DNA from: Planctomycetota bacterium
GTDB taxonomy: Bacteria > Planctomycetota > UBA8108 > UBA1146 > JAJFFE01
Direction of reading: 5' to 3'
Length of the DNA: 23,300 nt
Assembly: GCA_021776775.1 (NCBI GenBank)
Contig: JAJFFE010000244.1
Span: 1-23,300 of the forward strand
Shown: piece after piece, positions 320 to 23,300 of the stretch
How the letters are laid out: each line of letters begins with the position of its first letter
How positions within the stretch are numbered: position 1 is the first letter of the stretch
Translations under genes and position numbers: made by a program
Notes under the pieces: generated by a model
The model's input: only the letters and a program-made list of their open reading frames with translations
Database searches by the model: none
What the model was told of the DNA's origin: nothing

Positions 320-1234
320 GTGGATAGCGCTCCCCGGAGTACGATGACGCCTCCCCCCACCCAACCGAGGAGTCGAGTAGTGACGCTGCGTCTCTGGATG
401 AGTGCCCTGGTCATCGTAGGGGTGACCAACGTGAACGGTGCCGCCGTGCGTGCGCACGGAACGGTTCACACCCGGCTCGCTCGAGTGAACGGGCGGCTCG
501 CGACGTCTCCTCGCGACCCATCGCTTTGGGTCATGCGAGCATCGCTGCATCGCGAGCACCGAGACCTCGATTCGGCGCAACGCGATCTCGATCATGCGTT
601 GGCCTTGGACGATCGACATCACGATGCGCTGCTCGCGCGAGCTGGCTTGGCGCTCGCCCGTCAGCGGTACGACGAAACCATCGATCGTTGTCGCGACCTT
701 ATCGATCATTCGCCCGACGATGCTGGCGCCACGCTCATCTTGGCCCGGGCGTTAACGGCATCGGGACAACTCGAGTCAGCGTTCGACAGCTACGAGCGGG
801 TGATCGAGTTGCTGCCGCGCCCTGCGCCAGACCTGTTCCTCGAACAAGCTCGCGTCGCCCGACGCGCGTTTCCGAACCACCCGTATCTCGCCGCGTGGAG
901 TTTGGAAGCGGGGGTCGAACGGCTCGGCCCGATCGTTTCTCTGGTCCTTCCTCTGATCGAACTCGAGGTCGCATCGGAACTGTACGCAGTGGCCGAAGCG
1001 CGGGTCGATACTCTCCTTCGACAGTCCACCCGCGCCGGTCGTTGGCTTGTTCTTCGCGCCGAGATTCGGCTAGCGGCCGGAGATCATGAACTGGCGCGTA
1101 ACGACGCGGCACTCGCGATCGAATCACTCGGCTCGTCGAAGCGGCGTCCCGGCTCCAAACTCACAACCCAACTTCTTGAACGCGCGAATCGAGTCGTGAT
1201 CGAATCGCACCTCAACCTGGAGAAGCAACCATGA
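320..1234 (+). CDS. TPR-like repeat protein with an N-terminal hydrophobic segment; true start uncertain (later in-frame starts possible)
   Basis: 304-aa ORF with repeated helical A/L/R-rich units typical of TPR/Sel1 proteins (e.g. 'DLDSAQRDLDHALALDDRHHDALLARAGLALARQRYDETIDRCRDLI'). The segment 'VVTLRLWMSALVIVGV' looks like a transmembrane or signal helix. Its stop TGA (1232-1234) overlaps the ATG of the next gene as ATGA, suggesting translational coupling. Family assignment is by eye. Confidence 0.6.
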   Translation: MDSAPRSTMTPPPTQPRSRVVTLRLWMSALVIVGVTNVNGAAVRAHGTVHTRLARVNGRLATSPRDPSLWVMRASLHREHRDLDSAQRDLDHALALDDRHHDALLARAGLALARQRYDETIDRCRDLIDHSPDDAGATLILARALTASGQLESAFDSYERVIELLPRPAPDLFLEQARVARRAFPNHPYLAAWSLEAGVERLGPIVSLVLPLIELEVASELYAVAEARVDTLLRQSTRAGRWLVLRAEIRLAAGDHELARNDAALAIESLGSSKRRPGSKLTTQLLERANRVVIESHLNLEKQP

Positions 1235-3321
1235 CTCGGCTCGTGATTCAGCTGTTGACGCTCATGCTCTTCAGTACGACGGTCTCGGCGGCGGACACGC
1301 TCGTCGGATTCGGTTCGACGTGGAAGTACCTCGACAACGGCACGGACCCGGGACCGCTGTGGACAACGGGTGGGTTCAACGACGCCGGCTGGGCGGAAGG
1401 ACCGGCCGAACTGGGATACGGAGACGGTGACGAATCCACCGTAGTCAGCTTCGGCCCCGACCCGGACAACAAATACGTCACGACATACTACCGGCACGAA
1501 GCCGTCGTCGCCGACCCGTCACTCTACGACAGCCTGATCCTGCGCTTGGTTCGTGACGATGGTGCGGTGGTCTACATCAACGGGACGGAGGTCTTTCGAA
1601 CCAACATGCACGCGGGAACGATCACCTCCACGACGTTTGCCGTCAGCACGATCGGCGGCTCGGAGGAGACGCTGTTCAACCTCGCGATCGTCAACCCTGC
1701 GATCCTCGACCCCGGTTCGAACACGATTGCGGTCGAGATTCACCAACGAGAACCGGACAGCTCAGACACGTCGTTTCGCCTGCAATTGGTGGGTCATCTG
1801 TCCACGGATCCTATCAACGTTCTCCGTGGCCCCTACCTGCAACGCATCGCGCCCGATCGTGCTGTCGTTTGCTGGCGCACGAACGCCTTCACTGACAGTC
1901 GAATCGCTTTTGGCGACTCACCGACGAACCTGACGACCGTGGTCGACGACACCGCGTTGACGTCGGACCACGCGGTCGAAGTCACGGGTCTGTCGCCGTC
2001 GACGGCCTACTTCTACGCCGTGGGCACAACGAACTCGCCCGCTGCACCGTGGCTGGCCGGGGCCGACGCTAGCCACAAGTTCACCACGTCGCCCGCCCCG
2101 AGCGACCCCGGCCCCATACGCGTGTGGGCCATCGGCGACTCGGGTACCGCGGACGCCAACGCCGCGGCGGTTCGTGACGCCTACCTCGGGCTGGCCGGTA
2201 GCGACGCGACCGATCTCTGGTTGATGCTGGGCGACAACGCATACGACGCCGGGACCGACACCGAGTACCAAGGCGCAGTGTTCGACATGTACCCGACGTT
2301 CCTGCGCGAGCTCTCGGTGTGGCCGACGCTCGGCAATCACGACGGGCGCAGCGCAAGTATCACGGGCGAAGGACCGTACTACGCCATGTTCGACTTGCCC
2401 ACGCTCGGTGAGAACGGCGGCTTGGCATCGGGAACCGAAGCGTACTACTCCTTCGACCACGGCAACGTACACTTCGTCTGTCTCGACTCGGAAGGAAGCA
2501 GCCGCTCCCCGGGAAGCGCGATGCTGACCTGGCTCGAGAACGATCTCGCCAGCACCGACCGAGAGTGGATCATCGCATTCTGGCACCACCCACCGTACAC
2601 CGACGGGTCTCACGACTCCGACGACCCGACCGACAGCAGTGGTCGTCTCTTCGACATGCGAGAGAACGTGCTTCCCATTCTCGAAGACGGTGGCGTTGAC
2701 TTGGTCCTATGTGGTCACAGCCACTCCTACGAGCGTTCGTTTCTTCTCGACGCCCACTACGGAGTTTCTTCGACGCTGACTGCCGGCATGACCGTCGACG
2801 GCGGCGATGGCGATCCCACCGGCGACGGGGCGTACGAGAAGCCCGCCGGCGTCACCTCGCACAACGGCGCGGTGTTCGTGGTCGCCGGGTCGTCCGGGAA
2901 AACCAGCTCCGCGACGCTCGCACACCCCGCCATGATCGTGAGCCTCGAAGAGCTAGGCTCGGTCGTACTCGACATCGACGGACGTGAACTTCAGGGACGG
3001 TTCCTACGGTCGAACTCAGCCATTGCCGATACGTTCGTGATTCGCAAGAACGGAGCGTTCATCCGCGGCGACGCCAACGACGACGGAGCGTTCGACGTCG
3101 CTGACCCCGTGACGATTCTCGGCCACCTGTTTCAGTCGGCGTCGGTGAACTGCCGATCAGCCTTGGATTCCAATGACGACGAGTCGCTGAACATCGCCGA
3201 CGCCGTGCACGCTCTTGCCGCGCTATTCTCGGCAGGTGCGCCGCCGACCGCACCGTACCCATCCTGCGGTGCAGACCCCACGCCGGGCGGGCTCGATTGC
3301 GTGTCGTCTTCATGCCCCTGA
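1231..3321 (+). CDS. Secreted purple-acid-phosphatase-like metallophosphoesterase. Layout: signal peptide, N-terminal beta-sandwich module, PAP-N fibronectin-like domain, calcineurin-like phosphoesterase core, C-terminal dockerin-type double Ca-binding repeat with a Cys-rich tail
   Basis: 696-aa ORF with strong GC3 bias. Signal peptide 'MTRLVIQLLTLMLFSTTVSAADT'. Metallophosphatase motifs appear in canonical order: GDSG, GDNAYD, GNHD, WHHPPY, GHSHSYER. A PAP-N-like segment 'VLRGPYLQRIAPDRAVVCWRT...AYFYAV' precedes the core. The C-terminus 'FIRGDANDDGAFDVADPVTILGHLF...LDSNDDESLNIADAVHALAALF' fits the dockerin type I repeat pattern (DxNxDGxxxxxD...L), followed by 'PPTAPYPSCGADPTPGGLDCVSSSCP'. 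Confidence 0.9.
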   Translation: MTRLVIQLLTLMLFSTTVSAADTLVGFGSTWKYLDNGTDPGPLWTTGGFNDAGWAEGPAELGYGDGDESTVVSFGPDPDNKYVTTYYRHEAVVADPSLYDSLILRLVRDDGAVVYINGTEVFRTNMHAGTITSTTFAVSTIGGSEETLFNLAIVNPAILDPGSNTIAVEIHQREPDSSDTSFRLQLVGHLSTDPINVLRGPYLQRIAPDRAVVCWRTNAFTDSRIAFGDSPTNLTTVVDDTALTSDHAVEVTGLSPSTAYFYAVGTTNSPAAPWLAGADASHKFTTSPAPSDPGPIRVWAIGDSGTADANAAAVRDAYLGLAGSDATDLWLMLGDNAYDAGTDTEYQGAVFDMYPTFLRELSVWPTLGNHDGRSASITGEGPYYAMFDLPTLGENGGLASGTEAYYSFDHGNVHFVCLDSEGSSRSPGSAMLTWLENDLASTDREWIIAFWHHPPYTDGSHDSDDPTDSSGRLFDMRENVLPILEDGGVDLVLCGHSHSYERSFLLDAHYGVSSTLTAGMTVDGGDGDPTGDGAYEKPAGVTSHNGAVFVVAGSSGKTSSATLAHPAMIVSLEELGSVVLDIDGRELQGRFLRSNSAIADTFVIRKNGAFIRGDANDDGAFDVADPVTILGHLFQSASVNCRSALDSNDDESLNIADAVHALAALFSAGAPPTAPYPSCGADPTPGGLDCVSSSCP

Positions 3322-5370: not shown

Positions 5371-7470
5371 CTAGATCATCCCACGCGAGCCGAGTCGCCA
5401 GCGAACTCGAGCGATCGTGAGCGGCACGATATCGTCCTTGAAGTTCGCCCCTTTGCGCAAGGCGCGAATCGCTTCCTTGAGGGTCACTCCGGAGCCCAGG
5501 TAGTCGTCCACGATCAACATGGCGCCTTGGGGAAGTCGTGTGTGCGCGGGGGTCAATTTGCCGTGCACGTTGTCACGGCGTTGGTCGTTGTTCAACAACT
5601 CGCCCTGCCGCGACTCCGGTTCGGGATCCCACTCCAGCAGGTCGTCGAACACCCGGATGCCCAGGACCCGCTCGATTCGGCGACCGATCGCGGCCCGCTG
5701 AGACCAGGTGCGACTCGGAATCATGACGGCAAACGTGAACGTCGTCGTTTCAGCCAAGCGCAGGAGCGCTGCCTCGAACTGTTCTGCGAGGTCATCGCTC
5801 AGGTCGTCCTGCTCGGCGCGCGACTGCATGAATGCGACGAACTGCGGACTCCGCACTTGCCCGTCGAGGAGTGACAGTCCCGCTTCCATCTTTGGCGCGC
5901 GGGTCGCCGGAATTGCAATGTCACGGTGCGTAACCCAACGACGCGCGGCGGCGAGTTCGGATTCGGCGATCGGCTCGACGGCAACTCCCGGTTGGCAGCT
6001 TCCGCAACGACCACACTCCGTCGCTTCGGTGTCGCCGAGCGCCAAGCGCAACCGCTGCATGGAACAACTCGTCGACGAGCGACCATACTCGAGCATCGCT
6101 TCTAGCTCTTCGGTCCGCACGACGTGTTGTCGTTCGTAGCGCGACAGGTCCGCACGATCTTGTCGATCGGTTTGCAAATACACCTGACGGCGTCCCGCGA
6201 GCCGCTTGACGACGAAGCCTTGCTCGACCAACTCGGCAATCACGACCGTCACCTTGGTCGGGTGCATCCCGGTCAAGGCGCCGATCTGTCGACGCGCCGG
6301 AGCGTTGTCTTCGGCGCCACGTCGCTCCTTCGGCATACACGACAACACAGTCGCAAAGTCTTCGACGGTCGGCTGCGCGGAGCGAATGAAGTACTCCTGT
6401 ACCTCTCGATCGCGCTCGTCGTAGAGAAGGATTCCGGTGGCGGGATCACCATCGCGACCCGCTCGGCCGACTTCTTGGTAGTAGGCGGTGATCGAACCGG
6501 GAACGTCGACGTGCACGATGAAGCGAATGTCCGGTTTGTCGATGCCCATGCCGAGCGCATTCGTGGCGGCGATCACACACTGCTCACCGGTCGTGAACCG
6601 CGCTTGCAGGTCTCGCTTGAGATCCGGCGCCAGCCCCGCGTGGTAGGCGACAACGTTGTGCCCGACGGACGACAGATAACCCGCGATGATCTCGGTATTC
6701 TCTCGCGTCGAGCAGTAAAGGACTCCGCACGCCTTCCCCGCCTGTCCGTACTCTTCGAGCAGCTGCGACAAGCGAACCAGCTTGGCGTCGAGGCCGGGCG
6801 TCGGGATGACCCGTAGCGAAATGTTCGGCCGGTCCATGGTCTGACGCTGGATCGCCGATTCGCCGCCGTCCTCTGCCCGGAACTGGACCAGTATGTCGGT
6901 TTCGGTCCGAGCATTGGCCGTCGCGGTGAGACCGAGCACGCGTAGCTCGGGGCGTACGTTCTGCAGCGCGTGCACCGCGTGCATGATCTGCCGATACGAC
7001 GGCCTGAAGTCATGCCCCCACGTCGAAATGCAGTGCGCTTCATCGACGACGAAGAGATCGATCGGGAGGCTAGTGATGAACTCGAACGTCTCCAAGTTGT
7101 CGAGCCGCTCCGGGGCGACGAACAAGATGCGCAGCTGGCCCTTGCGGGCCGCGGTCATGACCGCCGCGTTCTCTTCCTCGGTTTGGTCAGAGTTGATCGA
7201 CCCCGCGGCCATGTCGAAACGAGTCTTAAGCTGCCCGACTTGATCTCGCATGAGCGCAAGGAGGGGCGAGACCACGAGGGTCATGCCTTCGAGAACTGCC
7301 GCGGGCAGCTGATAGAGCAACGACTTCCCGTGGCCCGTCGGCTGAATGCAGACCAGCCGTCCAGTCTCGAACAGAGTCTCGATTGCCTCCCGTTGTCCGG
7401 GTCTGTAGCCGTCGAAACCGAACCGTTCTCGTAGTACGTCATCCATTGCGGGGGGGATAGCGCTTGCCAT
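5371..7470 (-). CDS. recQ: RecQ-family ATP-dependent DNA helicase fused to a C-terminal ComF/GntX-type phosphoribosyltransferase-like domain
   Basis: 699-aa ORF. N-terminus 'RPGQREAIETLFETGRLVCIQPTGHGKSLLYQLPA' (motif I), 'VVDEAHCISTWGHDFRPSY' (DEAH box) and a RecQ Zn-binding Cys cluster '...CSMQRL...ECGRCGSC'. It lacks the usual HRDC end. Instead the last ~200 aa carry a type-I PRTase signature 'GAMLIVDDYLGSGVTLKEAIRAL', as in ComFC. Confidence 0.9.
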   Translation of the reverse strand: MASAIPPAMDDVLRERFGFDGYRPGQREAIETLFETGRLVCIQPTGHGKSLLYQLPAAVLEGMTLVVSPLLALMRDQVGQLKTRFDMAAGSINSDQTEEENAAVMTAARKGQLRILFVAPERLDNLETFEFITSLPIDLFVVDEAHCISTWGHDFRPSYRQIMHAVHALQNVRPELRVLGLTATANARTETDILVQFRAEDGGESAIQRQTMDRPNISLRVIPTPGLDAKLVRLSQLLEEYGQAGKACGVLYCSTRENTEIIAGYLSSVGHNVVAYHAGLAPDLKRDLQARFTTGEQCVIAATNALGMGIDKPDIRFIVHVDVPGSITAYYQEVGRAGRDGDPATGILLYDERDREVQEYFIRSAQPTVEDFATVLSCMPKERRGAEDNAPARRQIGALTGMHPTKVTVVIAELVEQGFVVKRLAGRRQVYLQTDRQDRADLSRYERQHVVRTEELEAMLEYGRSSTSCSMQRLRLALGDTEATECGRCGSCQPGVAVEPIAESELAAARRWVTHRDIAIPATRAPKMEAGLSLLDGQVRSPQFVAFMQSRAEQDDLSDDLAEQFEAALLRLAETTTFTFAVMIPSRTWSQRAAIGRRIERVLGIRVFDDLLEWDPEPESRQGELLNNDQRRDNVHGKLTPAHTRLPQGAMLIVDDYLGSGVTLKEAIRALRKGANFKDDIVPLTIARVRWRLGSRGMI

Positions 7471-7624
7471 GTCACCTCTCTCAGAGAAATTCGGGAGCGA
7501 AGCTCCTTAGCTAGGACACGCGCGCTACCGCCACTCGCGAGCCAAACCCAAACGCTATTTGCCGTGTACGAATCGCCGGCCCCGGCAGTTCAGCTAGTCG
7601 GCGAGTAGGACCAGCCGGCGATCA

Positions 7625-7638
7625 TTGGGAATTCCCAA
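7625..7638. promoter_or_regulatory. Perfect 14-bp palindrome TTGGGAATTCCCAA in the divergent promoter region between the RecQ-like gene and gene 7704; candidate operator
   Basis: Exact dyad symmetry ~65 bp upstream of the ATG at 7704 and ~150 bp upstream of the RecQ start at 7470. A TATACT -10-like hexamer sits at 7667-7672. Confidence 0.3.
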
Positions 7639-7703
7639 ATCAAAGGCGTCGCAAGACCGGTCGCTGCTTATACTGGTGGCTTCCCCTAAGACAAGGAGAT
7701 CGC

Positions 7704-8486
7704 ATGATCATCCGTTCACTGTTGGCTTGTGCCCTGTCCCTTTGCCTCGTGAGTCCCGCCGTCGCGGGGTCACACCTCTGGCAAATCAACGAGATCTTTT
7801 CGAGTGCCGACGGCACCGTGCAGTTCATCGAAATGCGAGAGTGCTGCGGCGCCCCGAGCGAAACCGGTATCGGCGGCAAGTGGGTCCTCAGCGACGCGAC
7901 CGGAATGCAGTTCGACTTCCCGGCCAGCCTGACCGGCTCCACTGCGAACATGCACTTGCTGCTCGCCACAGCCGCCTTCGCAGCGCTGCCCGGTGCGCCC
8001 ACCCCAGACTACATCATTCCGGAGAACTTCTTTAGCCTCGACGCGGATACGTTGGACTACTGGTTCTACGCCGGTGCGACCATGACCTATACCTCTGGGC
8101 AGCTCCCGCTCGACGGACTCAACTCGCTCGATCGAAACGGTGTGGTCGAAGTCAACAGCCCGACCAACTTCGCCGGCGACTCCGGCTCGGTCACGCTCAC
8201 CCCGCCGACCGGGCCCGAGTTCATTCGTGGCGACGCCAACCAAAACGGTGGCATCGAAATCGCCGACGCAGTCTCGATTCTCGATGCACTGTTCGGCGGC
8301 GTGCCGCTAGCGTGCGCGTTGGCCGGCGACTCGAACGATGACAACTCGGCAGACATCTCGGATGCGATCTTCGAGTTGACATACCTGTTCGTCAGCGGCG
8401 CCGCGCCGCCCGCGCCGTTCCCCGCGTGTGGCGAAGATCCCACCGGTGGATCGACCCTGACGTGTGACACGCCCGCGTGTCCATGA
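7704..8486 (+). CDS. Secreted protein: signal peptide, lamin-tail-domain-like N-terminal module, C-terminal dockerin-type double repeat with a three-Cys tail
   Basis: GGAG lies 7 nt upstream of the ATG. Signal peptide 'MIIRSLLACALSLCLVSPAVAGS'. 'LWQINEIFSSADGTVQFIEMRE' matches the LTD hallmark (INEI...FIEL). The C-terminus 'FIRGDANQNGGIEIADAVSILDALF...GDSNDDNSADISDAIFELTYLF...PPAPFPACGEDPTGGSTLTCDTPACP' is the same module as in the PAP-like protein. Confidence 0.85.
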   Translation: MIIRSLLACALSLCLVSPAVAGSHLWQINEIFSSADGTVQFIEMRECCGAPSETGIGGKWVLSDATGMQFDFPASLTGSTANMHLLLATAAFAALPGAPTPDYIIPENFFSLDADTLDYWFYAGATMTYTSGQLPLDGLNSLDRNGVVEVNSPTNFAGDSGSVTLTPPTGPEFIRGDANQNGGIEIADAVSILDALFGGVPLACALAGDSNDDNSADISDAIFELTYLFVSGAAPPAPFPACGEDPTGGSTLTCDTPACP

Positions 8487-9154
8487 AGTCGCTTTCGTTG
8501 ATAGCGCTCTTGGTCGTGGTCGGCCTTCTCGGCTGCACCGAACGCGCATCGACGAACGAAGAGGCCTCCGGTGCGAACGCACCGGGGGCCTCTCTCGCAT
8601 CAGATCTACCCGCCGCGGATCAGCCTACGGCGCACGCGTGCGATGGTTGCGCCCTGGCGCGCCTCAGCAATCGCGAGTGCAAAACATGCGGCGTCCGGTA
8701 TGTGGCCGGACTCGAGATCCCGTCGGAGATGCTGTTCGAGCTGCTCGACGCGCACGGCCATACCTACAACCCGAGCTCGCTACCCTGCCAAGGCTGCCGA
8801 GAGGCGTCCGCGACGAATGGACTCTGCGCCGAACATCGGTGGGGATTCGCCAAGGGACAACTCTACTTTTCGAAGCTGTCGTACTTGCTCGCGCAAGGGA
8901 AGCCACAAACCCGTGAAACCCTACCGTGCACCACGTGCCAGGGTTCCGACGCCACGATCTGGTGTGACCGTTGCGGTCACGGCTGGGTCGGCAACGTCGC
9001 CTTCACCGATCCCGTGCAACACTCGCAAGCGATCGAAGAGTACGAGCACCTCGTCGCCTGCGTCGAAACCGCCGCCGTGTGTGAGAAGTGCGCTGCTGCC
9101 AAATTCAGCGGCATGAAGTGCCCCACCTGTAAGACGACCTACCCGCGCCGCTAG
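8483..9154 (+). CDS. Cys-rich lipoprotein with four tandem CxxC-pair (zinc-ribbon/rubredoxin-knuckle-like) repeats
   Basis: The ATG at 8483 overlaps the upstream stop as ATGA (coupled). Lipobox 'VVVGLLGC'. Seven CxxC motifs sit in a ~50-aa periodicity: CDGC-x10-CKTCG, CQGC-x9-CAEH, CTTC-x8-CDRCG, C-x7-CEKC-x9-CPTC. Each second knuckle is followed by G-x2-[YW]-[VG]. The track's GTG start at 8477 is less likely than the overlapping ATG. Confidence 0.8.
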   Translation: MKSLSLIALLVVVGLLGCTERASTNEEASGANAPGASLASDLPAADQPTAHACDGCALARLSNRECKTCGVRYVAGLEIPSEMLFELLDAHGHTYNPSSLPCQGCREASATNGLCAEHRWGFAKGQLYFSKLSYLLAQGKPQTRETLPCTTCQGSDATIWCDRCGHGWVGNVAFTDPVQHSQAIEEYEHLVACVETAAVCEKCAAAKFSGMKCPTCKTTYPRR

Positions 9155-9178
9155 CCCCTTCTCGTTGCTACCGGCGGT

Positions 9179-10033
9179 TCACTCACACCCTGCGAACGAA
9201 TCACACGACAGGCTGTCGGGAGTCGGGTCGCCACCACAATCGCTCGGCGGCTCGAGAGGTGGCGTCGAAGCGACGAACAACGTCTCGAGTAGACGCACGA
9301 CATCGGCAATATCCAGTGCGCCGTCGTCGTTGCCGTCGCACGAACTGTCACACGGAGGCACGGTTGCCGCGCCGCTCGGGAACAGCTTGCCGAGCAGGAA
9401 CACCCCGTCGGAGATATCGTACGACGCGTCGTCATTGCAATCGCCACGGATGAACACGCCGGAGGAGGGCATGAGGGTCAGTGTCCCGGAGTTCCACGTC
9501 GTAGGCGCACTCAAGGTCGGAAAGATGGTCACCAGGTTGATCACAACCGGCCCCCCCGGGACGCGGGACAACGCCTCACTGAATTCGAGGCTCGTCGACA
9601 GCACTCCACCGCTCAGCGTCGGTTGCACCTCGTACGTGATTTCGAGGACCGGCTCCGCGGAGGGGAACGTCAGAAACACAAGCGAAGTCAGATTGTAGAC
9701 GCACCCCAGTGTCACCCCGAAGTCAGTGACCGAGTCTCCCCAGAAGTCCGGACCCGCTCCGCTGTTCAACGCAGCGATGATCGGCCCCTGATTCGACTCC
9801 GTGGCGACCACGAACACGTCGTCGTGCGCGACCCCCATCGAGAACCCTTGAGTGTCGTTCACAACACCGCTCAACTCCTCGATGGTCACCGAAACGGTAA
9901 ACTCCGTCGCGAGACCCGGAACGTACGACACCGTCTGGTCGGCGATGGCGAACTCGAACAGAATCTGTCCGCTCGCGACCGCGGGGAAAGCAAACAGCAC
10001 GATGACAATCGCTCGACAACAGGCGTGGTGCAT
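9179..10033 (-). CDS. Secreted hypothetical protein ending in the same dockerin-type double repeat plus Cys tail
   Basis: Signal peptide 'MHHACCRAIVIVLFAFPAVASGQ'. GGAAAGG lies upstream of the ATG (minus strand). The last 91 aa 'FIRGDCNDDASYDISDGVFLLGKLF...CDGNDDGALDIADVVRLLETLF...PPSDCGGDPTPDSLSCDSFAGCE' match the module seen in two other proteins here. The N-terminal ~170 aa match no family recognisable by eye. Confidence 0.8.
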   Translation of the reverse strand: MHHACCRAIVIVLFAFPAVASGQILFEFAIADQTVSYVPGLATEFTVSVTIEELSGVVNDTQGFSMGVAHDDVFVVATESNQGPIIAALNSGAGPDFWGDSVTDFGVTLGCVYNLTSLVFLTFPSAEPVLEITYEVQPTLSGGVLSTSLEFSEALSRVPGGPVVINLVTIFPTLSAPTTWNSGTLTLMPSSGVFIRGDCNDDASYDISDGVFLLGKLFPSGAATVPPCDSSCDGNDDGALDIADVVRLLETLFVASTPPLEPPSDCGGDPTPDSLSCDSFAGCE

Positions 10034-10798
10034 TCGCTGCAGCCTTTCCGGGGTAACACGCGGGCCGGACTCGTTCGGAAAGTGTCACGGCTCGACCCGC
10101 CCGAGTCGAGAAATTCCTCGCCGTCCCCCCAAGCTGATGATGGGATAGCCAATAGTGAGTCGTCGCATCTCGGCGCGCAAGTCGAGCCGTATCGCCGCGA
10201 GGAAAACGATGATCAAGTTTCTTGGCGGCCTTTGCGGTTCTTGGCGGCTTTGCGAGAAGCTGCCAAGCGACAAGAACACAACGATCAACGTACCCAACTG
10301 CCAGAGCGCTTCGCCCGGTCAAGGACGAGCGCGTCCGACAGCGGTCTCTCAGCAAGCCGCCGAGCGGATAATGAGATCGCACATAGCCAAGCGGCGCAGG
10401 CTGGAAAACTTTCTCGGATAGCAGTGCGTGATCGTCGAAGGCACACCGTCCTACTGACTCAACCCATTTGATGAACGCTATGAAGTAGGACCGACATGAA
10501 CTCCAAACCACCTCGTTCGCAATCACGATCGCGAACCCACAACCGCCCGCCCCGTTCATTCGGGTTGCGCGGTAGGTGTGGAATAACGTTTGGAGCAAAC
10601 AAGCGAGCGGAGTATTCCGCGGACGATTGAGTCATGTCTTTCTATCGAGAGACGTCGAATTCAAACGACCGAGGGCTCCACTGCGGAGGCCGCGGTCGTT
10701 TTTCATTTGCCACCAACGACACGAAGCGCCAGTGGCACCAAGGGCTATGCCCTCACGGTGTTCCACGGGAGGCTTCGAAACGTCGTGCAGTTGGTGTT

Positions 10799-10873
10799 AG
10801 CGCTATAGCTCAGTGGATAGAGCATAGGACGGCAATCCTACGGGCGCAGGTTCGAATCCTGCTAGCACTACCA
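10799..10873 (+). tRNA. tRNA-like gene (75 nt with CCA) with a non-canonical anticodon arm; anticodon not assignable by hand (possibly a degenerate tRNA-Ala(GGC)-like sequence)
   Basis: Hand fold: acceptor AGCGCUA/UAGCACU (one C3:A70 mismatch), U8A9, canonical D-arm GCUC-AGUGGAUA-GAGC, T-arm GCAGG-UUCGAAU-CCUGC, discriminator A, CCA. The anticodon arm UAGGA-CGGCAA-UCCUA closes a 6-nt loop, one nt short and lacking U33. Total length is 75, not 76. Confidence 0.5.
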
Positions 10874-15859: not shown

Positions 15860-18800
15860 ATGAGTTTGCGCACGCACGTAGCGCTACTGACACTCGGGCT
15901 CCTGGCGACGACAGCGCCACCGGTCTGGGCCGCGGCCGATCTCGATCCGTCGACGACGTTCACTGCGGCGGACGGAGCGCGAACCACTCTCGACGTCGGT
16001 GGGGCGTGGGACGGCACCGCCGATGCCTCCGCATCCACCGGTGACACGCTCACCATCACCATCGACAACAACGCGAGCGGCCCCGCCGGATCAGACACCG
16101 CTTACGACCTCACGCTCGTGGTCACGTTACCGGTCGGTTTCAACTACGTGACCGGGAGCGCGAACGGCGTCGTCGGACTGACCGCCACGCAAGTGGGTCA
16201 GACTCTCACGTTCGCGGTACCCGCCGATACCGACCTCCCGCCGAGTACGTCGCTCGCCCTTACGTACGGCGTGGTCACCGCGACCACTGTGACCTCGGGT
16301 ACGTATGAGTTGACTTACACCATCGGCTACGGAACCACCGACGGCGCGACCGACGGCAGCGTGATTGCTTACCAGAACCTCGGTGTCACGGCCGGGGCCA
16401 CGGTGCTCACCGTCGATCGACCGGTGCAAACGCTGGCCGTGGGCGCCACCGCCTCATGGACCGTCGAAGTCACGAACTCGGGGGTGGGCGGGCTTTTCGA
16501 TGTCGTCCTCGAGGAAGCGCTGATCAACCCGAACCCGAGCGGCTCGCTTCAGATCACTTCGATCGTGCAGACGTTGCCGGTGACGCCGGTCGCCACCAGC
16601 GACGCCGACACCCTGACGCTCGCCTACTTGGCGCCGGGTGAAGTTCTGCGCGCGACAGTGCAAGCAACGGTCACCGGTTGCGACACGATCGACAACGAAG
16701 TGTCGACCACCGACCGCACGACCACCACCGCGAAGAGCACCACCGCCCACGTCGTGCTCGACCTCACTGAGCCGCTCATCGGATACACGCCGCCCACGAC
16801 GACGCTGCTCTACGACACTACCGGGAGCGTGAGCTTCGACGTCGACAATCTAGGCCTCGGCGACGCCGACGACATTGTTCTGCAGACCAACTTGGAGTTG
16901 TTGGGGGTCACGGTCACGGCGGTCTCCGGCGACTGGAGCTACAACTCTCTCGACGGCAACTTCACGCTGACGGCGGGAAGCGGAACCCTTTCGAACGGCG
17001 CATCGTCGACGTTGGCGTTCGACATCGCTCCGACTGACGTATGCGTCTCGCTCGGCGGAGGCACCGTGGTTTGGTCGTCGAGTTACGACAACGCCTGCGC
17101 GCAGAGCTACTTGACTCCCATCGAAATCTCGACGCTGAACGCCGTGTCGCTGGTTCCGTCGATCGCGCTCTCGATCGTTCCCGACGACGATCGCCTGGAA
17201 GTCGGAGCGACAAGCGCCTATCGAATCCGGTTCGACGCCACGCAGCTCGCGCTGATCCAGACCGATCCGATTGTCGTGACGCACACGTTGCCGACAGACG
17301 TTACCGCGGTGACGATCAGCGCTCCCGGCACGACCTCCTCGGGGTGCAGTGGCGTCTGCGCGGGTGGCGACACCGTCACGTGGACGATCGACCAGAGCGA
17401 CATCGGCGGAACGCTCGATCTGGTGATCGACTTCACGGCACCCGCGGACCCGTGTTTGGGCGGCACCGACTTGACCTATGCCGCAAGCTTGACCGCCAGC
17501 AGCACCGAGCTCTGCTCGCTGAACGCGTCTGTCAGCACAACGACGCTCCTCATCAATAATCCCGATGCCGGCGTCACGCAGAACTTCAACGTCGCGGCGG
17601 GCACCTTCGAAACGGGAGACCCGGATGACGGAGACCGAACCCGAAACTTCCAAGAGGGTGAGTTCCTCACCTACACCGTGACCTACACGTTCGGAGTGGG
17701 TAGCGCGGGCGTGTGGACCAACACGACGTTGAGCGACAGCTTCGGTGGCCTCGCCGGACAAACTTACGTCGCGGGTACCATGCAATACGAAGTCGATGGA
17801 GGCGGATTCTCCGGCGTAAATCCGGCGGACATCACAGCTGTACCCGGCGCCCTGTCGATAGATTTGGGCTTCCTCACCGCTCAAACCGGCGGGACAACGG
17901 TATCCGGGCATACAGTAACGCTGACGTACCAAACCACGATCCCCGACAGTGACCTGCTAGGGGCGACGAGCCGCACCTTCACGCAACTCGTCACGCTTGA
18001 CCTCGACGGCGGCGCAGGCGGTTGCGCCGGAGTGGGATCGACGTTCACCCAGGGAGCGTTCGTCACGATCGCTCGCGCGGCGCCGACCATCTCGGTAGCG
18101 ATGCCAAGCGATGTCTCCGTGTGTGAAGACTTCACGGTGACGCTGACCGTCGACAACTCGACCAGCGAGTTCCCGTCCAATCTACTCATGACGATCGACA
18201 CTAGCGGCAACTACCTCTACCCGACGGGACAAACTCCGACGTACGGGGGCGCGTTCACCGACGGCAACATCACTTACGTCGAGAACGGTGGCAGCAACCC
18301 TACGTTCGAGTTGACGCCGACGTCGACCGAGTTGACCGCGGCGGGCACGATCACGTTTCAGATGCACCGCGCCGCGGCGACCGGCACCACGCCGACATCG
18401 CTCGACGTCACGCTCGACTACGACGACCACCAAGAGGCCGACACCGCCGGGCGCGACTTCTCGACGAGCGGGTCTGCAACTCCCATTCTCGTCCGCGAAG
18501 GCGTGCTCGACATGATCGTCACGCCGCAGAGCTATACGGTGACCGGGAGCCAGGCGAGTTGGACGATCTACGTCACCAACACCGGCGCCGGCGCCGCGGT
18601 CGACGCGTCACTCACGGCGACGGTAGCGGCGGGACTCACACCGGACGCTACGGATAGCGACGCCCTGAATCCCGGCTACCCCGTCGTGGTTGCAAGTCAG
18701 GACATGACGTGGGATCTCGGCGACATGGCGTCGGGAACGACTCGAACCATCGAAGTCGTGGTCGACGTGACTTCGGCGATCGCCTGCTCGTTCACGCCGG

Positions 18801-21800
18801 GATCCAATTCAGCGACCGCCACCTGGGGTTGCGACGCGACTCCCCACCAAACGCTCAGTGAGAACTCCCCCGACCTGCTGTTCCTCGAGTCCGGAGTTCA
18901 GGCGTACCACGACACGACGCAGAGCCGCGCCCGACTGTGCGATACCGGCACGGTCATCATCACCGCACGCAACACCGGAGGCACTCACGTCTTCGATGTC
19001 GAAATCACCGAGGTGCTGAACCCGCTGACGAGTGGCGTCGACTACGTCGCGAGTTCGTCCGAGTTCTCGACCAACGGCGGCGGCTCGTGGAATCCCGCCG
19101 GCGACCCCTCAGGCGACGGAAGCGCCGGATCTCCTTACACGTGGGACTCGACTGACATCGCGGATCTCGTCGACTTGTCTCCTCTCACCGAAGGCGCTGG
19201 CGTCAGTGAAATCCTCCTGCGCTTCAGCGTCACCGCCGACGAAACCGCCAATCTAGGCGACCCCACGATCCTCGCCGGAATGAGTGGCGATTTGGCGTGC
19301 GGCGGGTCGGTGGCATCTCCGGGAACGCCGTTCACGTTGCCGGTCGAGAAGCCAGACATCCGAGTCACCATGAACACCCGCAATCTCACGAACGGTGGCA
19401 GCTTTGCAGCCTCGGCGTTCGGAGGCAACGGGGACACCGTCGAGTGGCAGGTCGCGGTACAGAACTCGGGGGATCACGACGCGCAAAACGTTCGCTTCGT
19501 CGTCAACCTGCCCAACAGCACTCCCACCTCGACGGTGATCGACGGTACGGGGTTCAGTTCAACTCCTTACACCGACAACTCAGTCATCACCGTTACCGAC
19601 ATCGCCGCCGGCACCACGGAGACGTTCACCATCACTGAAGTCCTGGGCTCCAGCTGTGTCGACGCAACGGCGACCGCCACTGTGACGTGGGGGTGTATCG
19701 ATCTCGGTGCGACGACACCGTCGGGGCTTTCAACACCGACCGACAACAGCGACACCGCGAGCTTCGTCATGGTTCCGGACTTCACGCAAGCCTCGGCGAT
19801 CACTCAAAGCTTCACCGCGCTCGAGAACGGCTTGACCCAAGTTCGTCTGACCATGACCAACAACGGCGGACGCGCCGAGAACTTGGTGCTGACGGACGCG
19901 CTCCCCGCTGGAATCGAGATAGACACCTCCTTCACGCCGACGCTTACCAGTACCGGAAACGTCACCAATGTCGCGGTGAATACGGCGGACGCGACAACAC
20001 CCGTGTTCACATTCACCGGCACCTTGATCAACAACACGAATGCTCGCGTGACGTTTCGCGTTCTACCGGTCACCGACTTCGACACCACAGTCTTGCCGCT
20101 GACAAGCCCCGAAACGGTCGGCTCCGGAGATACCGCGGTACCCGCGGGCGGGACCAATACCGCGACGCTGTCGTTCGACTCGTCGTGTGGTGACGCCGAC
20201 TCCGACGTCGACACCTCGACGCTGAATCCAGCCACGCCTGATCTCGACATGATCGTTTCTCCATCTTCCCAAGTCGTCGCCGACGGCGAAGCGGTCACCT
20301 ACCTATTCACGATCACCAACAACGGCGACGCGAGTTCCATCGCGGGCAACATCGATTTCACCCTGACGGCGGGCGCCGGTTGGACAAGCGTCAATAGCTC
20401 CATCACCACGCCGGGAACCGGCGGATCTGGTGAATCGTGCAGCGGATCGTGCTCGCTGACGGACTTCGGAACGCTCGCCCAAGGAGCGTCCGCCGTAGTC
20501 ACCGTGACAGCGGTCGCCAATGACAACGCAGGGTCCCTGCAGTTGATCGGAGCGGTGACGGGGAGCCTCACCGGCGGGAACTACAGCCTCGACCAAACCC
20601 AAGTACGAGTGGTGGGGTTCGAAACGACGCTCACCCGCCAGTCCACCAGTGAAACCTTCTCGACCGGCGCCGAGGTGGCGGTCGGTGAAGAGATCACGTG
20701 GCGGTTGACCGGCCGTTACTTCGGCGGCGAAGCGCTGACCGCGGTCTCGATTCGCAACACTCTGCCCACCGAACTCGGCTACGTCTCACACGCCACCGTC
20801 GGGAGTCACGACGTCACGATCTCCGGAGTTACCGGGGACACCGCAGTCACCTCGGGCACGATCAACTTTTCGGTGAGTGACTTCGCGGGGGTAGGAACGT
20901 TCGAAGTCGATCTGATCGCGCGAGTCCTCAACGTCGCGGGCAGCACCGATGGCGCGTCGCTCACCAACAACGTCGGATACACGTTCGACGCCTTCGGCGA
21001 CACTTACGCGTCCGATGCCGCCGCCGACGCCTTCGCCGGAGCGGAGTCGGATCTTCACGCCGACGACAGCGTCACCGTCAGACGACCTAACATCTCCGTA
21101 GCGAAGCTGGTCCGCAACGTGACGACCAGCGGGAGTTTCGCGACGTCGGCGGCCGGCGAAGCGGGCGACACCTTCGAATACCAAGTCACCGTCAACAACA
21201 GCGGCAACTTCCCCGGTCTCGATGTTTCGATCGTCGACACGCTCGCGACCAGCGAGCTGTTGATGGTCGACGGAGCGTCGGACGGTATCGACAACGACGG
21301 CGATGGAAGTATCGACGACGCCACCGAGGGCAGATACACGGTCGGAAGCGGCGGTGATGTCACGTTCGACCACACGTCAACAGTGCTCGCGTCGGGGTCG
21401 CCTTCGCAGACCTTGGCGCAACTCGACGCCGGTGAGTCACTGGTCTTCTTGTATCGAGTCACGGCCGGGTCCGGCGTGAACCCGGAGGAAGTCCTGGCCA
21501 ACAATGTGGTATCGACCACGACCAGCCTCCCCGGAGCCAGCGGATCTCAGTCGTCGTCCGCCGGTGTCAGCGGTGCGACCGACGGCGAACTGAGCCTGAC
21601 CGACAGCGATAGCATCGACGTCACGGTCGACTCAGTCGCGCTCGCCAAAACCATCGTCGCCACGGCGCTGGGAGCGGATACCTCGACCGACGTCGTCATC
21701 GGCGAACAGATCACCTTCGAACTGTCGGTAGTCTTGCCGTCGGGTACGGTGCCCGCGCTCGAGATCGACGACTCGCTCCCGGCCGGGCTCTCACTCGTCG

Positions 21801-23300
21801 CGACGCCGGCCGTTACGCTCGGATCCGCCATCCCAGGGGGTCAGCCGACCATCACCCCGGGCGCGTTGCCCGCCTCCGGCAGTCCGCTCGCCATCAACTG
21901 GGACTTCGGCAGTCGAATCGTCGCCGCCGGGACCACGGCGGAGCGCACCGTGACCGTGACCTACACGGCGCAGATCGAAAACGTAGTCGGCAACGTCGAA
22001 GGTACTGTGCTGACCAACACCGCGTCCTACAGCTACACCGGATCGCCGGCCAATAGCATGACGACCACCGTCACTGTGCGCGAACCGTCGATCGCCGTGA
22101 CTCAGACGGTCTCCCCCGACGCGAGCTTCGACGCCGGCGCAACGCTGACCTACACCGTGCAAGTCGTGAACTCGGGCAACGCCACTGCCTACGATCTGAA
22201 CATGGTCGAGACGCTGGCCGCGAGTTTGAGCTACGTCGCGAGCACGACCAACATTACATCGGGTCCCTCGTTCGGCGAACCCGATACGGGCGGCGGCGCC
22301 ATCACGTGGGGTCGAACGCAAGGCGTCCCGCAAGACATCGATCTACCCGCCGGTCAAACGTTGACGTTCACCTACGACGTGTTGGTCGAAGACAGCGTCG
22401 AGCCGAGCCAAGCGATGGGGAGCGACTTCGACTTGGATTGGACTTCGATCGACGGCGACCCGGGAGTTGATCTCGGTGTCACATTGGGAACGGCCGGAGA
22501 CGCCGACGGCGAACGCAACGGCGGCGCTGGCGCGGTCAACGACTTCGCGGCAAGCGACACGGATACCGCGACCTCTGCCGCGACCGCAACGATCAGCGTC
22601 GCCGAGAGCGGCGATACACTGGTACCGTCCGACTTTCGCATTGGTGATCTCGTCACATTCACGATCCAAACCACCGTCAGCGAAGGAACCTTCGACAGCT
22701 TCGAGATCGAAGACACTCTTCCCGCCGGACTTGCCTTCTTCGACGCCCAGTCGATCACGCCGGCCAGCGGAGGCGCGGCGTTCACTTACACGCAGCCAAC
22801 GGGAGGATCGTTACCTTCCGCCGGCGATACCGGGGTGCTGACGTGGAGCCTCGGCACGGTGGTGAACGCGGGCGACGACGACGGGACGAACAACACGCTG
22901 ACGCTCGTGTACCGAGCACGCATTCTCGACACCGGCGGCTTGGCGACCACGCGAACCACGCAGACGGTGAGCAATTCGTCGGTCGTCCGCTATCTCGACG
23001 CGGCGGACGGTGCCCAGGCAACGGCCGCCTCGACCAGCGATGTGACGGTCGATCAGCCTGCTCTCACCGCAGTCCTCGTTCTCGCCCCTGGCCAAACGGC
23101 GCCCGTGTCGGGCGGCGACACCGTCGACTACGTGTTGACCGTCACCAATGGTGGCGACGCACCCGCCTACAACACGTCTCTGATCGATGTCTTACCAGCC
23201 GACCTCAGGGGCAGCGCAGTCACCACGGTCAGCGCCACCGTCGACGGCTCGTCTATTGGCCTCGGCAATCCCACGTGGGTCGGCGCCACCGGCACCGCGA
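15860..23300 (+). CDS. Giant cell-surface protein with many DUF11-type ('conserved repeat domain') beta-sandwich repeats; 5' complete, 3' end beyond the window (>2,480 aa)
   Basis: ATG at 15860 immediately follows an in-frame TGA (15842). Signal peptide 'MSLRTHVALLTLGLLATTAPPVWAAADL'. Reading frame 2 by eye shows no stop to 23300 and strong GC3 bias. The protein is Thr/Gly/Ala/Val/Asp-rich with recurring DUF11 signatures: 'VTYLFTITNNGDASS', 'FEYQVTVNNSGNFPGLDVSIVDTLA', 'LTYTVQVVNSGNATAYDLNMVETLAASLSYV', 'VDYVLTVTNGGDAPAYNTSLIDVLPADL'. It is absent from the supplied track because it has no stop inside the window. Confidence 0.85.
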   Translation, partial: MSLRTHVALLTLGLLATTAPPVWAAADLDPSTTFTAADGARTTLDVGGAWDGTADASASTGDTLTITIDNNASGPAGSDTAYDLTLVVTLPVGFNYVTGSANGVVGLTATQVGQTLTFAVPADTDLPPSTSLALTYGVVTATTVTSGTYELTYTIGYGTTDGATDGSVIAYQNLGVTAGATVLTVDRPVQTLAVGATASWTVEVTNSGVGGLFDVVLEEALINPNPSGSLQITSIVQTLPVTPVATSDADTLTLAYLAPGEVLRATVQATVTGCDTIDNEVSTTDRTTTTAKSTTAHVVLDLTEPLIGYTPPTTTLLYDTTGSVSFDVDNLGLGDADDIVLQTNLELLGVTVTAVSGDWSYNSLDGNFTLTAGSGTLSNGASSTLAFDIAPTDVCVSLGGGTVVWSSSYDNACAQSYLTPIEISTLNAVSLVPSIALSIVPDDDRLEVGATSAYRIRFDATQLALIQTDPIVVTHTLPTDVTAVTISAPGTTSSGCSGVCAGGDTVTWTIDQSDIGGTLDLVIDFTAPADPCLGGTDLTYAASLTASSTELCSLNASVSTTTLLINNPDAGVTQNFNVAAGTFETGDPDDGDRTRNFQEGEFLTYTVTYTFGVGSAGVWTNTTLSDSFGGLAGQTYVAGTMQYEVDGGGFSGVNPADITAVPGALSIDLGFLTAQTGGTTVSGHTVTLTYQTTIPDSDLLGATSRTFTQLVTLDLDGGAGGCAGVGSTFTQGAFVTIARAAPTISVAMPSDVSVCEDFTVTLTVDNSTSEFPSNLLMTIDTSGNYLYPTGQTPTYGGAFTDGNITYVENGGSNPTFELTPTSTELTAAGTITFQMHRAAATGTTPTSLDVTLDYDDHQEADTAGRDFSTSGSATPILVREGVLDMIVTPQSYTVTGSQASWTIYVTNTGAGAAVDASLTATVAAGLTPDATDSDALNPGYPVVVASQDMTWDLGDMASGTTRTIEVVVDVTSAIACSFTPGSNSATATWGCDATPHQTLSENSPDLLFLESGVQAYHDTTQSRARLCDTGTVIITARNTGGTHVFDVEITEVLNPLTSGVDYVASSSEFSTNGGGSWNPAGDPSGDGSAGSPYTWDSTDIADLVDLSPLTEGAGVSEILLRFSVTADETANLGDPTILAGMSGDLACGGSVASPGTPFTLPVEKPDIRVTMNTRNLTNGGSFAASAFGGNGDTVEWQVAVQNSGDHDAQNVRFVVNLPNSTPTSTVIDGTGFSSTPYTDNSVITVTDIAAGTTETFTITEVLGSSCVDATATATVTWGCIDLGATTPSGLSTPTDNSDTASFVMVPDFTQASAITQSFTALENGLTQVRLTMTNNGGRAENLVLTDALPAGIEIDTSFTPTLTSTGNVTNVAVNTADATTPVFTFTGTLINNTNARVTFRVLPVTDFDTTVLPLTSPETVGSGDTAVPAGGTNTATLSFDSSCGDADSDVDTSTLNPATPDLDMIVSPSSQVVADGEAVTYLFTITNNGDASSIAGNIDFTLTAGAGWTSVNSSITTPGTGGSGESCSGSCSLTDFGTLAQGASAVVTVTAVANDNAGSLQLIGAVTGSLTGGNYSLDQTQVRVVGFETTLTRQSTSETFSTGAEVAVGEEITWRLTGRYFGGEALTAVSIRNTLPTELGYVSHATVGSHDVTISGVTGDTAVTSGTINFSVSDFAGVGTFEVDLIARVLNVAGSTDGASLTNNVGYTFDAFGDTYASDAAADAFAGAESDLHADDSVTVRRPNISVAKLVRNVTTSGSFATSAAGEAGDTFEYQVTVNNSGNFPGLDVSIVDTLATSELLMVDGASDGIDNDGDGSIDDATEGRYTVGSGGDVTFDHTSTVLASGSPSQTLAQLDAGESLVFLYRVTAGSGVNPEEVLANNVVSTTTSLPGASGSQSSSAGVSGATDGELSLTDSDSIDVTVDSVALAKTIVATALGADTSTDVVIGEQITFELSVVLPSGTVPALEIDDSLPAGLSLVATPAVTLGSAIPGGQPTITPGALPASGSPLAINWDFGSRIVAAGTTAERTVTVTYTAQIENVVGNVEGTVLTNTASYSYTGSPANSMTTTVTVREPSIAVTQTVSPDASFDAGATLTYTVQVVNSGNATAYDLNMVETLAASLSYVASTTNITSGPSFGEPDTGGGAITWGRTQGVPQDIDLPAGQTLTFTYDVLVEDSVEPSQAMGSDFDLDWTSIDGDPGVDLGVTLGTAGDADGERNGGAGAVNDFAASDTDTATSAATATISVAESGDTLVPSDFRIGDLVTFTIQTTVSEGTFDSFEIEDTLPAGLAFFDAQSITPASGGAAFTYTQPTGGSLPSAGDTGVLTWSLGTVVNAGDDDGTNNTLTLVYRARILDTGGLATTRTTQTVSNSSVVRYLDAADGAQATAASTSDVTVDQPALTAVLVLAPGQTAPVSGGDTVDYVLTVTNGGDAPAYNTSLIDVLPADLRGSAVTTVSATVDGSSIGLGNPTWVGATGTA

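Follow-up and report, generated by a model that had tools for sequence, protein, structure and literature searches.

An exported protein family with four tandem predicted metal sites, encoded beside a secreted partner in Planctomycetota and other uncultured bacteria

The window, by which we mean the whole stretch of DNA analysed (23,300 nucleotides, positions 1 to 23,300 of contig JAJFFE010000244.1 from a Planctomycetota bacterium), contains a gene for a cysteine-rich lipoprotein at 8483..9154 on the forward strand, which an earlier note made from the sequence alone had singled out together with the gene immediately upstream (7704..8486). We find that the lipoprotein is very probably (at about 0.85) an exported protein with four Cys3(Cys/His) metal sites in tandem, fixed to the membrane by a lipid in this lineage, that with the same high probability it belongs to a sizeable unnamed family whose fold is unrepresented in the PDB, and that it is, again at about 0.85, functionally tied to the secreted protein encoded next to it. 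That the pair handles metal outside the cytoplasm is a more tentative proposal, to which we assign a probability of 0.35–0.4; the identity of the metal and a physical interaction between the two proteins are things that we infer. The gene is organized as follows:

8483..9154, forward strand: Cys-repeat lipoprotein gene, identified from its open reading frame and translation, a homologue (P0002) and 292 family representatives
8483..8486, forward strand: ATGA start/stop overlap with the upstream gene, the ATG lying over the TGA of open reading frame 7704..8486
8483..8536, forward strand: signal peptide with lipobox L-L-G-C (amino acids 1-18), read from the sequence; C18 is the predicted lipidated Cys
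8537..8632, forward strand: low-complexity tether (amino acids 19-50), predicted to be disordered (predicted local distance difference test score, pLDDT, 51-62) and unconserved
8633..8776, forward strand: unit 1 (amino acids 51-98), C53xxC56-x9-C66xxC69 followed by a beta-hairpin and a helix (pLDDT >90, hhalign)
8747..8761, forward strand: D89-A-H91-G-H93 at the end of unit 1, a conserved motif and candidate fifth, exposed metal site
8777..8920, forward strand: unit 2 (amino acids 99-146), C102xxC105-x9-C115xxH118, of CCCH type in the window protein
8921..9070, forward strand: unit 3 (amino acids 147-196), C149xxC152-x8-C161xxC164, with a long helix (177-197) that holds C193
9071..9151, forward strand: unit 4 (amino acids 197-223), C200xxC203-x9-C213xxC216, a truncated unit

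The open reading frame starts with the ATG at 8483 and stops with the TAG at 9152-9154, giving a product of 223 amino acids; a GTG at 8477 is an alternative start, with which the frame would overlap the upstream gene too. Between this gene and that of P0002, whose protein is 57% identical and shares all 16 mature Cys and H118 with it, half of the identical residues are encoded by different codons, and substitutions number 115 at third codon positions compared with 63 and 60 at the other two, a bias which indicates that the frame is a real coding gene under purifying selection. The N-terminus of the protein (MKSLSLIALLVVVGLLG, then C18) has charged residues in a short n-region, a hydrophobic core of 14 residues and the lipobox L-L-G-C, and the string M-K-SLSLIALLVVVGL-L-G-C18 reads as a substrate of signal peptidase II, the pattern expected of a bacterial lipoprotein. 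The reading frame, the translation and the signal sequence thus bear out the lipoprotein described earlier. We found no promoter-like or terminator-like site in 7300..10300, and a check for an origin in a mobile element or plasmid gave no plasmid match.

Of the protein's 17 cysteines, 15 lie in the four units of about 50 residues, as had been claimed, and the others are the lipobox C18 and C193; the latter is Ala in 85 of 97 relatives and hence not a family cysteine. The units recur with a period of 49, 47 and 51 residues, and the two knuckles of each are 8-9 residues apart, inside the range of 8-10 given earlier. The accompanying statement that each repeat has two CxxC-type knuckles needs amending, as there are seven CxxC motifs and the second knuckle of unit 2 is CxxH. 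The sequences CxxCG-x2-YV in unit 1 and CxxCG-x2-WV in unit 3 are present as described. All family-wide counts given below for the Cys-repeat protein, unless another sample is named, come from an alignment of 97 of the 292 representatives. Profiles of the units taken from these homologues and compared by hhalign gave probabilities of 97.6% (units 1 and 2), 98.1% (1 and 3), 98.6% (2 and 3), 94% (1 and 4) and 96.5% (2 and 4); these five of the six pairs have E-values of 1e-7 to 1e-15, and the pair of units 3 and 4 alone is weak. Since the units recognize each other as profiles, they are true internal repeats, and the ligand positions within them are conserved across the family.

An indication of the nature of these repeats is the pattern of residues at the four ligand positions. 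In unit 1 the combinations are CCCC in 73 sequences, CCCH in 17 and CCCD in 1; in unit 2, CCCC in 63, CCCH in 16, CCCD in 5 and CCCS in 9; in unit 3, CCCC in 82, CCCH in 5, CCCD in 2 and CCCS in 1; and in unit 4, CCCC in 85 and CCCH in 10. Ligands 1-3 are nearly always Cys in all units and ligand 4 varies among Cys, His and Asp, with CCCC ahead of CCCH and CCCH ahead of CCCD throughout. Replacement of the fourth Cys by His or Asp with the other three Cys retained is the signature of a metal site, and the unpaired Cys that it leaves is at odds with disulfides within a unit. We therefore regard as very improbable the alternative that the cysteines form up to eight disulfides and that this is a metal-free, disulfide-knotted surface protein resembling EGF/laminin-type or TNFR-type modules. 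An extracytoplasmic location would suit such a protein, as would weak matches to EGF_laminin, Laminin/attractin EGF and TNFR-like domains in a few relatives and a laminin chain among the PDB matches, but in each unit a single Cys is exchanged for His or Asp in 5-30% of sequences with three Cys kept and no partner Cys lost. The CxxC-x9-CxxC arrangement also speaks against it, and zinc-ribbon matches occur in 30 of the 97 relatives compared with EGF-like matches in only 2-3.

Seven cysteines (C66, C105, C115, C161, C200, C203 and C213) are invariant in the alignment, and C53, C56, W65, G72, D89, H91, G92, H93, C102, G121, C149, C152, W160, C164, G167 and G170 are at least 90% conserved. Among these, D89 (88 of 97 sequences), H91 (90) and H93 (94) form the D-A-H-G-H motif, which is found in unit 1 alone of the four units; a scan pattern, L[FHY][ED]x[LI]DAHGH, was built on this conserved end of unit 1.

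An AlphaFold2 model made from the 97-sequence alignment has a mean pLDDT of 87.6 and a predicted TM-score of 0.75, with ten-residue block means of 90 or more over approximately residues 51-220 and low values for residues 1-50. It supersedes a run with a 2-sequence alignment, whose pLDDT of 55.7 made it unusable. Each unit is modelled in the order CxxC at the start of a short helix, loop, second knuckle, beta-hairpin and helix; in the predicted secondary structure, units 1, 2 and 4 have a helix starting at their first CxxC, and the second knuckle comes ahead of the hairpin. The predicted fold as a whole domain had no match in the PDB, and sequence searches of the PDB with the 2-sequence, partner and single-unit profiles gave only knuckle-level or dockerin-level matches.

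The earlier note had not recognized the repeat architecture as a named family, and our scans agree: Pfam and NCBIfam searches of the window protein, its two neighbours and the 97 members produced no family-level match. The likeness to zinc-ribbon or rubredoxin knuckles that it proposed is upheld at the level of the knuckle. PF07191 (Zn_ribbon_6) has no match in the window protein at E<=1, and gives weak sub-threshold matches in 30 of the 97 relatives (best E-value 1.2e-5; two scored 19.9 and 23.6 bits, the cut-off being 25), and a one-unit profile searched against the PDB finds the bL32 zinc ribbon across both knuckles (E ~0.013) as well as C2H2, LIM and RING knuckles. The window protein shares with zinc ribbons such as the PF07191 double zinc ribbon (YfgJ-like) and bL32 the pairs of CxxC knuckles about 9-12 residues apart, the four ligands per metal and the interchange of Cys and His at one ligand. 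It differs from them in having four units rather than one or two, each with an added conserved hairpin and helix, in that, in its model, the first CxxC seems to cap a helix, zinc ribbons having both knuckles on beta-hairpins in a three-stranded topology, and in being exported and lipid-anchored whereas zinc ribbons are cytoplasmic.

Rubredoxin offers a second comparison and with it another interpretation, in which the units would be rubredoxin-like Fe(Cys)4 centres forming a short extracytoplasmic electron chain that passes electrons to or from the partner, for instance at its vicinal Cys-Cys or at an N-terminal copper site. The knuckles do recall rubredoxin, with its WxCPxCG and tetrahedral Cys4 site: they read GWCxxCxxG[YFW] and CPxC, the CxxCG and CPxC sequences following an aromatic residue. 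Four centres would lie within one rigid domain, one relative is fused to a thioredoxin-fold domain, and many of the source habitats are anoxic sediments or groundwater. We nevertheless consider this interpretation improbable. Rubredoxin PF00301 has no match among the 97 members, the knuckles are 8-9 residues apart (they are about 30 residues apart in rubredoxin), the frequent His, Asp or Ser at the family's fourth ligand is atypical of such a centre, the signal peptide is of the Sec and not the twin-arginine (Tat) type, and no redox enzyme is conserved nearby.

The cysteine-rich (CR) domain of DnaJ/Hsp40, named earlier as a characterized family in which the protein might turn out to belong, resembles it in having four tandem, glycine-rich, CxxC-containing repeats that bind, or in the window protein are predicted to bind, zinc. 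We looked for a placement there or in another characterized family and found none. The CxxCxGxG register is absent, the window protein having CxxCGxxY and CxxCGxGW instead, none of its seven CxxC motifs continues as xGxG, and PF00684 (DnaJ_CXXCXGXG) has no match among the 97 members. In addition, the DnaJ CR domain holds two zinc sites, unlike the four metal sites predicted here, and the window protein has no J domain and is exported. Two further candidates were rejected on motifs absent from the window protein: haem binding (no CxxCH) and an Fe-S or Tat-exported cofactor protein (no twin-arginine motif).

The family is large, and its members are difficult to find. A word-indexed homologue search was nearly blind to it, returning 2 matches from the single sequence (the protein itself and P0002) and 6 from a profile, whereas an exhaustive HMMER search with a two-sequence profile and a limit of E<=1e-3 retrieved 292 sequences, each representing one 50%-identity cluster; 234 of them have E<=1e-10 and 75 have E<=1e-30. 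Nearly all of them are 200-260 residues long. The source names are all "hypothetical protein", and the named sources are metagenome-assembled genomes (MAGs) of Planctomycetota and Phycisphaerales. In a genome scan that covered one genome per species, with a 12-sequence alignment as query, we found 44 loci, all in MAGs and mostly in Planctomycetota/Phycisphaerae; the others include several Acidobacteriota (Polarisedimenticolia) and single bins assigned to Binatia, "Cryosericum" and Proteobacteria.

A signal peptide stands at the start of all members of the Cys-repeat family, and the suggestion that metal knuckles are here tethered in an unusual place, outside the cytoplasm, therefore holds for export in the family and for lipid anchoring in this lineage. 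Export and tether traits were counted over 147 members. By a crude pattern, 36 have a lipobox, which is kept in the eight nearest relatives (P0002, P0003, P0005, P0009, P0014, P0015, P0019 and P0020). In 19 members the core is preceded by a His-rich tether of HDHDH type, for example HDHDHAGHDHADHDHADHDHDHD and HGDEHGHAHDEHGEHEHTDHEHGDHEHG; four proteins with long tethers of this kind (P0028, P0037, P0088 and P0093) have a recurrent H-P-x-x-D-P motif directly N-terminal of the core. One metagenomic protein of 423 residues (P0053) consists of an N-terminal thioredoxin-fold domain (T4_deiodinase/AhpC-TSA, E-value 1.9e-17), a His-rich linker and then the Cys-repeat module. In its thioredoxin-fold domain the active-site Cys is replaced by Ser, in FGSSTSPIF.

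We examined gene order at 46 loci: the 44 from the scan, the window, and its closest relative (L001). Clustering of their open reading frames identified the N-terminal domain of the neighbouring secreted protein, which we call the partner, as the sole other conserved family (E-values 1e-27 to 1e-87), and by tblastn 39 of the 46 loci have this domain no more than about 1 kb from the Cys-repeat gene. Among the seven loci where the domain was not detected, five end at or near a contig edge, four of them having no room for the gene and L001 having a truncated partner; the other two are taken up below. The reciprocal look-up, from six partner proteins on long contigs, found a Cys-repeat gene as the immediate neighbour in five (hmmsearch E-values 1e-51 to 1e-81), the sixth, P0254, having none.

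The partner is downstream and convergent at 20 of the 39 loci, upstream on the same strand at 10, downstream on the same strand at 7, and upstream and divergent at 2. The ATGA overlap with the upstream stop codon, reported earlier, is present, and the pairing for which it was cited is kept in relatives. Translational coupling does not hold as a general feature: a 4-nucleotide overlap is seen only in the window (ATGA) and in L001 (GTGA), other same-strand loci have spacings of roughly 10-70 nucleotides (approximate, as the start codons are not fixed), and with 20 of 39 pairs convergent the link is one of adjacency and not of obligatory co-translation. No third conserved neighbour emerged from all-against-all clustering of open reading frames combined with Pfam, nothing being common to more than 3-4 loci, and a Pfam scan of 134 flanking proteins found no family in more than three. 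Since no flanking family recurs more often, the module consists of exactly two genes that move as a unit. Apparent clusters of open reading frames (c2-c7) were rejected as shadow frames of the two real genes.

Some loci depart from this simple arrangement. At four, all in a small sub-clade (L009, L011, L014 and L015), the gene directly upstream of the pair encodes a reprolysin-type (M12B) metallopeptidase of 535-614 residues that has a dockerin-like tail; this is too infrequent to be treated as conserved context. Two separate copies of the module occur in one Planctomycetota MAG (L017 and L050, on JBJXGE010000084.1 and JBJXGE010000025.1), and at another locus (L035) two partner-domain genes adjoin one Cys-repeat gene.

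In the window the partner gene is organized as follows:

7704..8486, forward strand: partner gene, 260 amino acids, with a signal peptide, a conserved N-terminal domain of about 145 residues and a dockerin-like tail
7767..8204, forward strand: N-terminal domain (amino acids 22-167), which starts G-S-H24-L-W26 after the predicted signal peptide
8217..8483, forward strand: C-terminal tail (amino acids 172-260), with two DxNxxG..D loops and a Cys-containing end; an optional module

It is the N-terminal domain that accompanies the Cys-repeat gene. More than 400 partner homologues exist; for none of them does Pfam supply a model that covers the conserved domain, and those that are named are called "hypothetical", except for one "dockerin type I repeat-containing protein". 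In an alignment of 33 members the invariant residues are H24, W26, E30, F32, F41, E43, E53, T80, L86, P99, P135, N151, P153 and N155. A vicinal Cys-Cys, within FIE[LM]xECCG, occurs in about 70% of this sample.

Directly after the predicted signal peptide the partners have a near-invariant A-x-A-G-S-H-x-W, of which the window's G22-S-H24-L-W26 (7767..7781) is an example. The His is present in 118 of 118 homologues that match H-x-W-x-[FIVL]-x-E (118 of the 120 listed, P0167-P0286), and in these it is preceded by A (70%), any residue, A (76%), G (78%) and S (97%, 114 of 118). If the signal peptide were cleaved between AxA and GSH the mature N-terminus would be of the type known as ATCUN, a site for copper and nickel at the amino terminus, and if it were cleaved between AGS and H it would resemble a His brace; both sites obey the -3/-1 rule, and we regard this as a lead rather than a demonstration. 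ATCUN-type (NH2-X-X-His) and N-terminal-His motifs bind copper in other proteins.

The tails of the partners vary. Among the 33 homologues, nine have Dockerin_1/EF-hand tails (best E-value for Dockerin_1, 1.4e-6), four have IPTL-CTERM and two have a MopE-type metal-binding motif; a partner profile matches dockerin chains in the PDB with an E-value of 0.047. The dockerin tail reported earlier for the window copy can be seen as two loops, GDANQNGGIEIAD and GDSNDDNSADISD, but Pfam finds nothing in it even at E<=5, and the tail is interchangeable across the family. Type I dockerins (PF00404) are made of two Ca-binding repeats of ~22 residues each, DxNxDGxIxxxD. The accompanying label of lamin tail domain (LTD) finds no support in the partner's sequence. 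PF00932 has no match in the window partner (E<=1) or in the 33 homologues (E<=0.1), and it is absent from the precomputed Pfam assignments of 120 homologues, whose few recorded matches are dockerin, EF-hand and IPTL-CTERM tails. An hhalign comparison of the partner with a human lamin A tail, a weak test, gave a probability of 0.15%.

From these observations we propose the following mechanism, which as a whole we hold to be about as likely as not. The Cys-repeat protein would be held at the membrane by its lipid on a flexible tether of about 30 residues and would have a core of about 170 residues made of four homologous mini-domains, each folded round a single metal ion in tetrahedral coordination, with Zn2+ the most probable. 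A CxxC that caps the N-terminal end of a short helix and a CxxC or CxxH knuckle leading into a beta-hairpin would supply the ligands, and the four units would pack into one rigid domain, with a fold absent from solved structures, that displays the conserved D-x-H-x-H patch at the end of unit 1. It would act with the secreted domain of about 145 residues of its neighbour, whose invariant His would lie 1-3 residues from the mature N-terminus. The likeliest job of the pair would be to capture, buffer or pass on Cu, Zn or Ni outside the cytoplasm, with the Cys-repeat protein as the membrane-proximal binding or chaperone component; its contribution would be four structural Zn sites and the exposed DxHxH patch, joined in some lineages by a His-rich tether, and that of the partner an N-terminal His site.

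The hints that favour a role in metal handling are the conservation of D89, H91 and H93, the His-rich tethers, the thioredoxin-fold fusion, the partner His and the MopE-type tails. Several facts weigh against it. The tether of the window protein has no His-rich stretch, the thioredoxin-fold fusion is a single case, and H24 is the only invariant His in the partner, which makes a classical His brace doubtful. Thiolate sites are uncommon in oxidizing periplasms. Two loci with full flanks (L003 and L031) have no partner. Among the 134 flanking proteins no transporter, regulator or cuproenzyme gene is conserved, and HupE/UreJ, a Ni/Co transporter family, occurs in just two of them, at two loci, which is too rare to be conserved context.

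Alternatively, the metal sites may be purely structural, with zinc replacing a hydrophobic core in small exported domains, and the protein may have no part in metal traffic; anchored in the membrane, it would keep the secreted partner at the cell surface or control it there, as its receptor, scaffold, inhibitor or aid to folding. We hold this explanation to be on the unlikely side. It would account for an adjacency kept regardless of orientation, for the lack of a conserved metal transporter or regulator nearby and for a window protein without a His-rich tether. Partner sequences are 50-70% identical and Cys-repeat proteins 31-58%, as expected for an enzyme or ligand and its accessory protein, and the dockerin-like and IPTL-CTERM tails of the partners are surface-anchoring devices. 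It leaves aside the DxHxH patch, the His-rich tethers in 19 of 147 members and the partner's N-terminal His, all typical metal-binding features, and lipid anchoring, which is limited to about a quarter of the family, cannot be the general role.

Returning to metal handling, the nearest parallels are periplasmic metal proteins such as NlpE, which is a CxxC lipoprotein, the copper storage proteins (Csp), CopG and the CopC/YcnI/LPMO-type proteins, which are likewise extracytoplasmic with thiolate or N-terminal His ligands, some being lipid-anchored and some His-rich; in the case of the CopC/YcnI/LPMO-type copper proteins with an N-terminal His, the comparison concerns the partner. Hand-over between two proteins is a common logic in periplasmic metal systems. 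The present pair is unlike these systems in that neither protein has a PDB match and no CopD or YcnJ-type transporter is adjacent, and the NlpE model NF007814 scores 13.8 bits against a cut-off of 243 bits. A more specific version of the proposal, which we think rather unlikely, is that the two genes are an unrecognized, self-contained extracytoplasmic metal system, most plausibly for copper, that has spread horizontally among Planctomycetota, Acidobacteriota and other uncultured lineages, in which the partner, secreted or anchored at the surface, would provide an N-terminal-His copper site of ATCUN-like or His-brace-like kind and the tetra-Cys4 protein, with its novel fold, would be its thiolate-based metallochaperone, buffer or redox partner.

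The Cys4 knuckle pair itself is known, and neither the two-gene module nor the domain of four units, with its location and predicted fold, is described in the libraries and literature searched; the literature on periplasmic zinc ribbons, on ATCUN motifs after signal peptides and on LTD/dockerin proteins of Planctomycetes describes neither family. Exported proteins seldom rely on Cys-thiolate metal sites, and four of them in tandem in one rigid domain are apparently new. Both families are sizeable (292 cluster representatives and more than 400 partners) and have neither a Pfam or NCBIfam model nor a solved relative, and their adjacency, kept through changes of orientation, sets the two genes apart as a functional module of phyla that have been little studied and are for the most part uncultured. 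Handling of copper or zinc at the cell surface would make the pair a new type of periplasmic metallochaperone system, and if the sites are only structural, the protein would still represent a new Zn-stabilized fold for exported proteins. Either way the protein lends itself well to structure determination and metal analysis, and new database models could be built from both families.

The tail of the window's partner is one of three copies. The same tail of about 88 residues ends three otherwise unrelated exported proteins, at 3058..3318 (forward strand), 8217..8483 (forward strand) and 9182..9460 (reverse strand); the proteins are a purple-acid-phosphatase-like protein (1231..3321), the partner (7704..8486) and a protein of 284 amino acids (9179..10033, reverse strand). 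In the shared tail there are two EF-hand/dockerin-like loops, and its end reads ...CGxDPTxxxLxCxxxxC; the copies match each other with BLASTP E-values of 1e-11 to 1e-21, and Pfam Dockerin_1 fails to recognize any of the three. The tail appears to be a module for surface sorting or anchoring that is specific to this lineage. The 284-residue protein is secreted, is encoded downstream of and convergent with the Cys-repeat gene, and has an N-terminal domain without a Pfam match. Homologues near the pair are found only in the closest relatives (L001, 277 amino acids, E-value 5e-41; and L036), and the protein is outside the widely conserved module.

Three other features of the window lie further from the pair. 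A RecQ-like helicase (5371..7470, reverse strand; DEAD, Helicase_C and a weak RecQ_Zn_bind) is extended at its C-terminus by a segment containing a phosphoribosyltransferase-type motif for binding phosphoribosyl pyrophosphate, LIVDDYLGSGVT, for which Pribosyltran gives an E-value of 6e-4, below threshold; judged by its sequence, the product may be a fusion of RecQ with a ComF-like phosphoribosyltransferase. A tRNA gene at 10799..10873 (forward strand) scores 59 bits with Rfam, whose match at 10799-10870 is the only one in the window, and is reported by ARAGORN as 'tRNA-???, anticodon (gc)', with neither an anticodon nor an amino acid assigned. Finally, an open reading frame of at least 2480 codons (15860..23300, forward strand) runs off the end of the window and encodes about 13 DUF11 repeats together with Ig-like/MG10-like segments, a content which indicates that its product is probably a giant surface protein.

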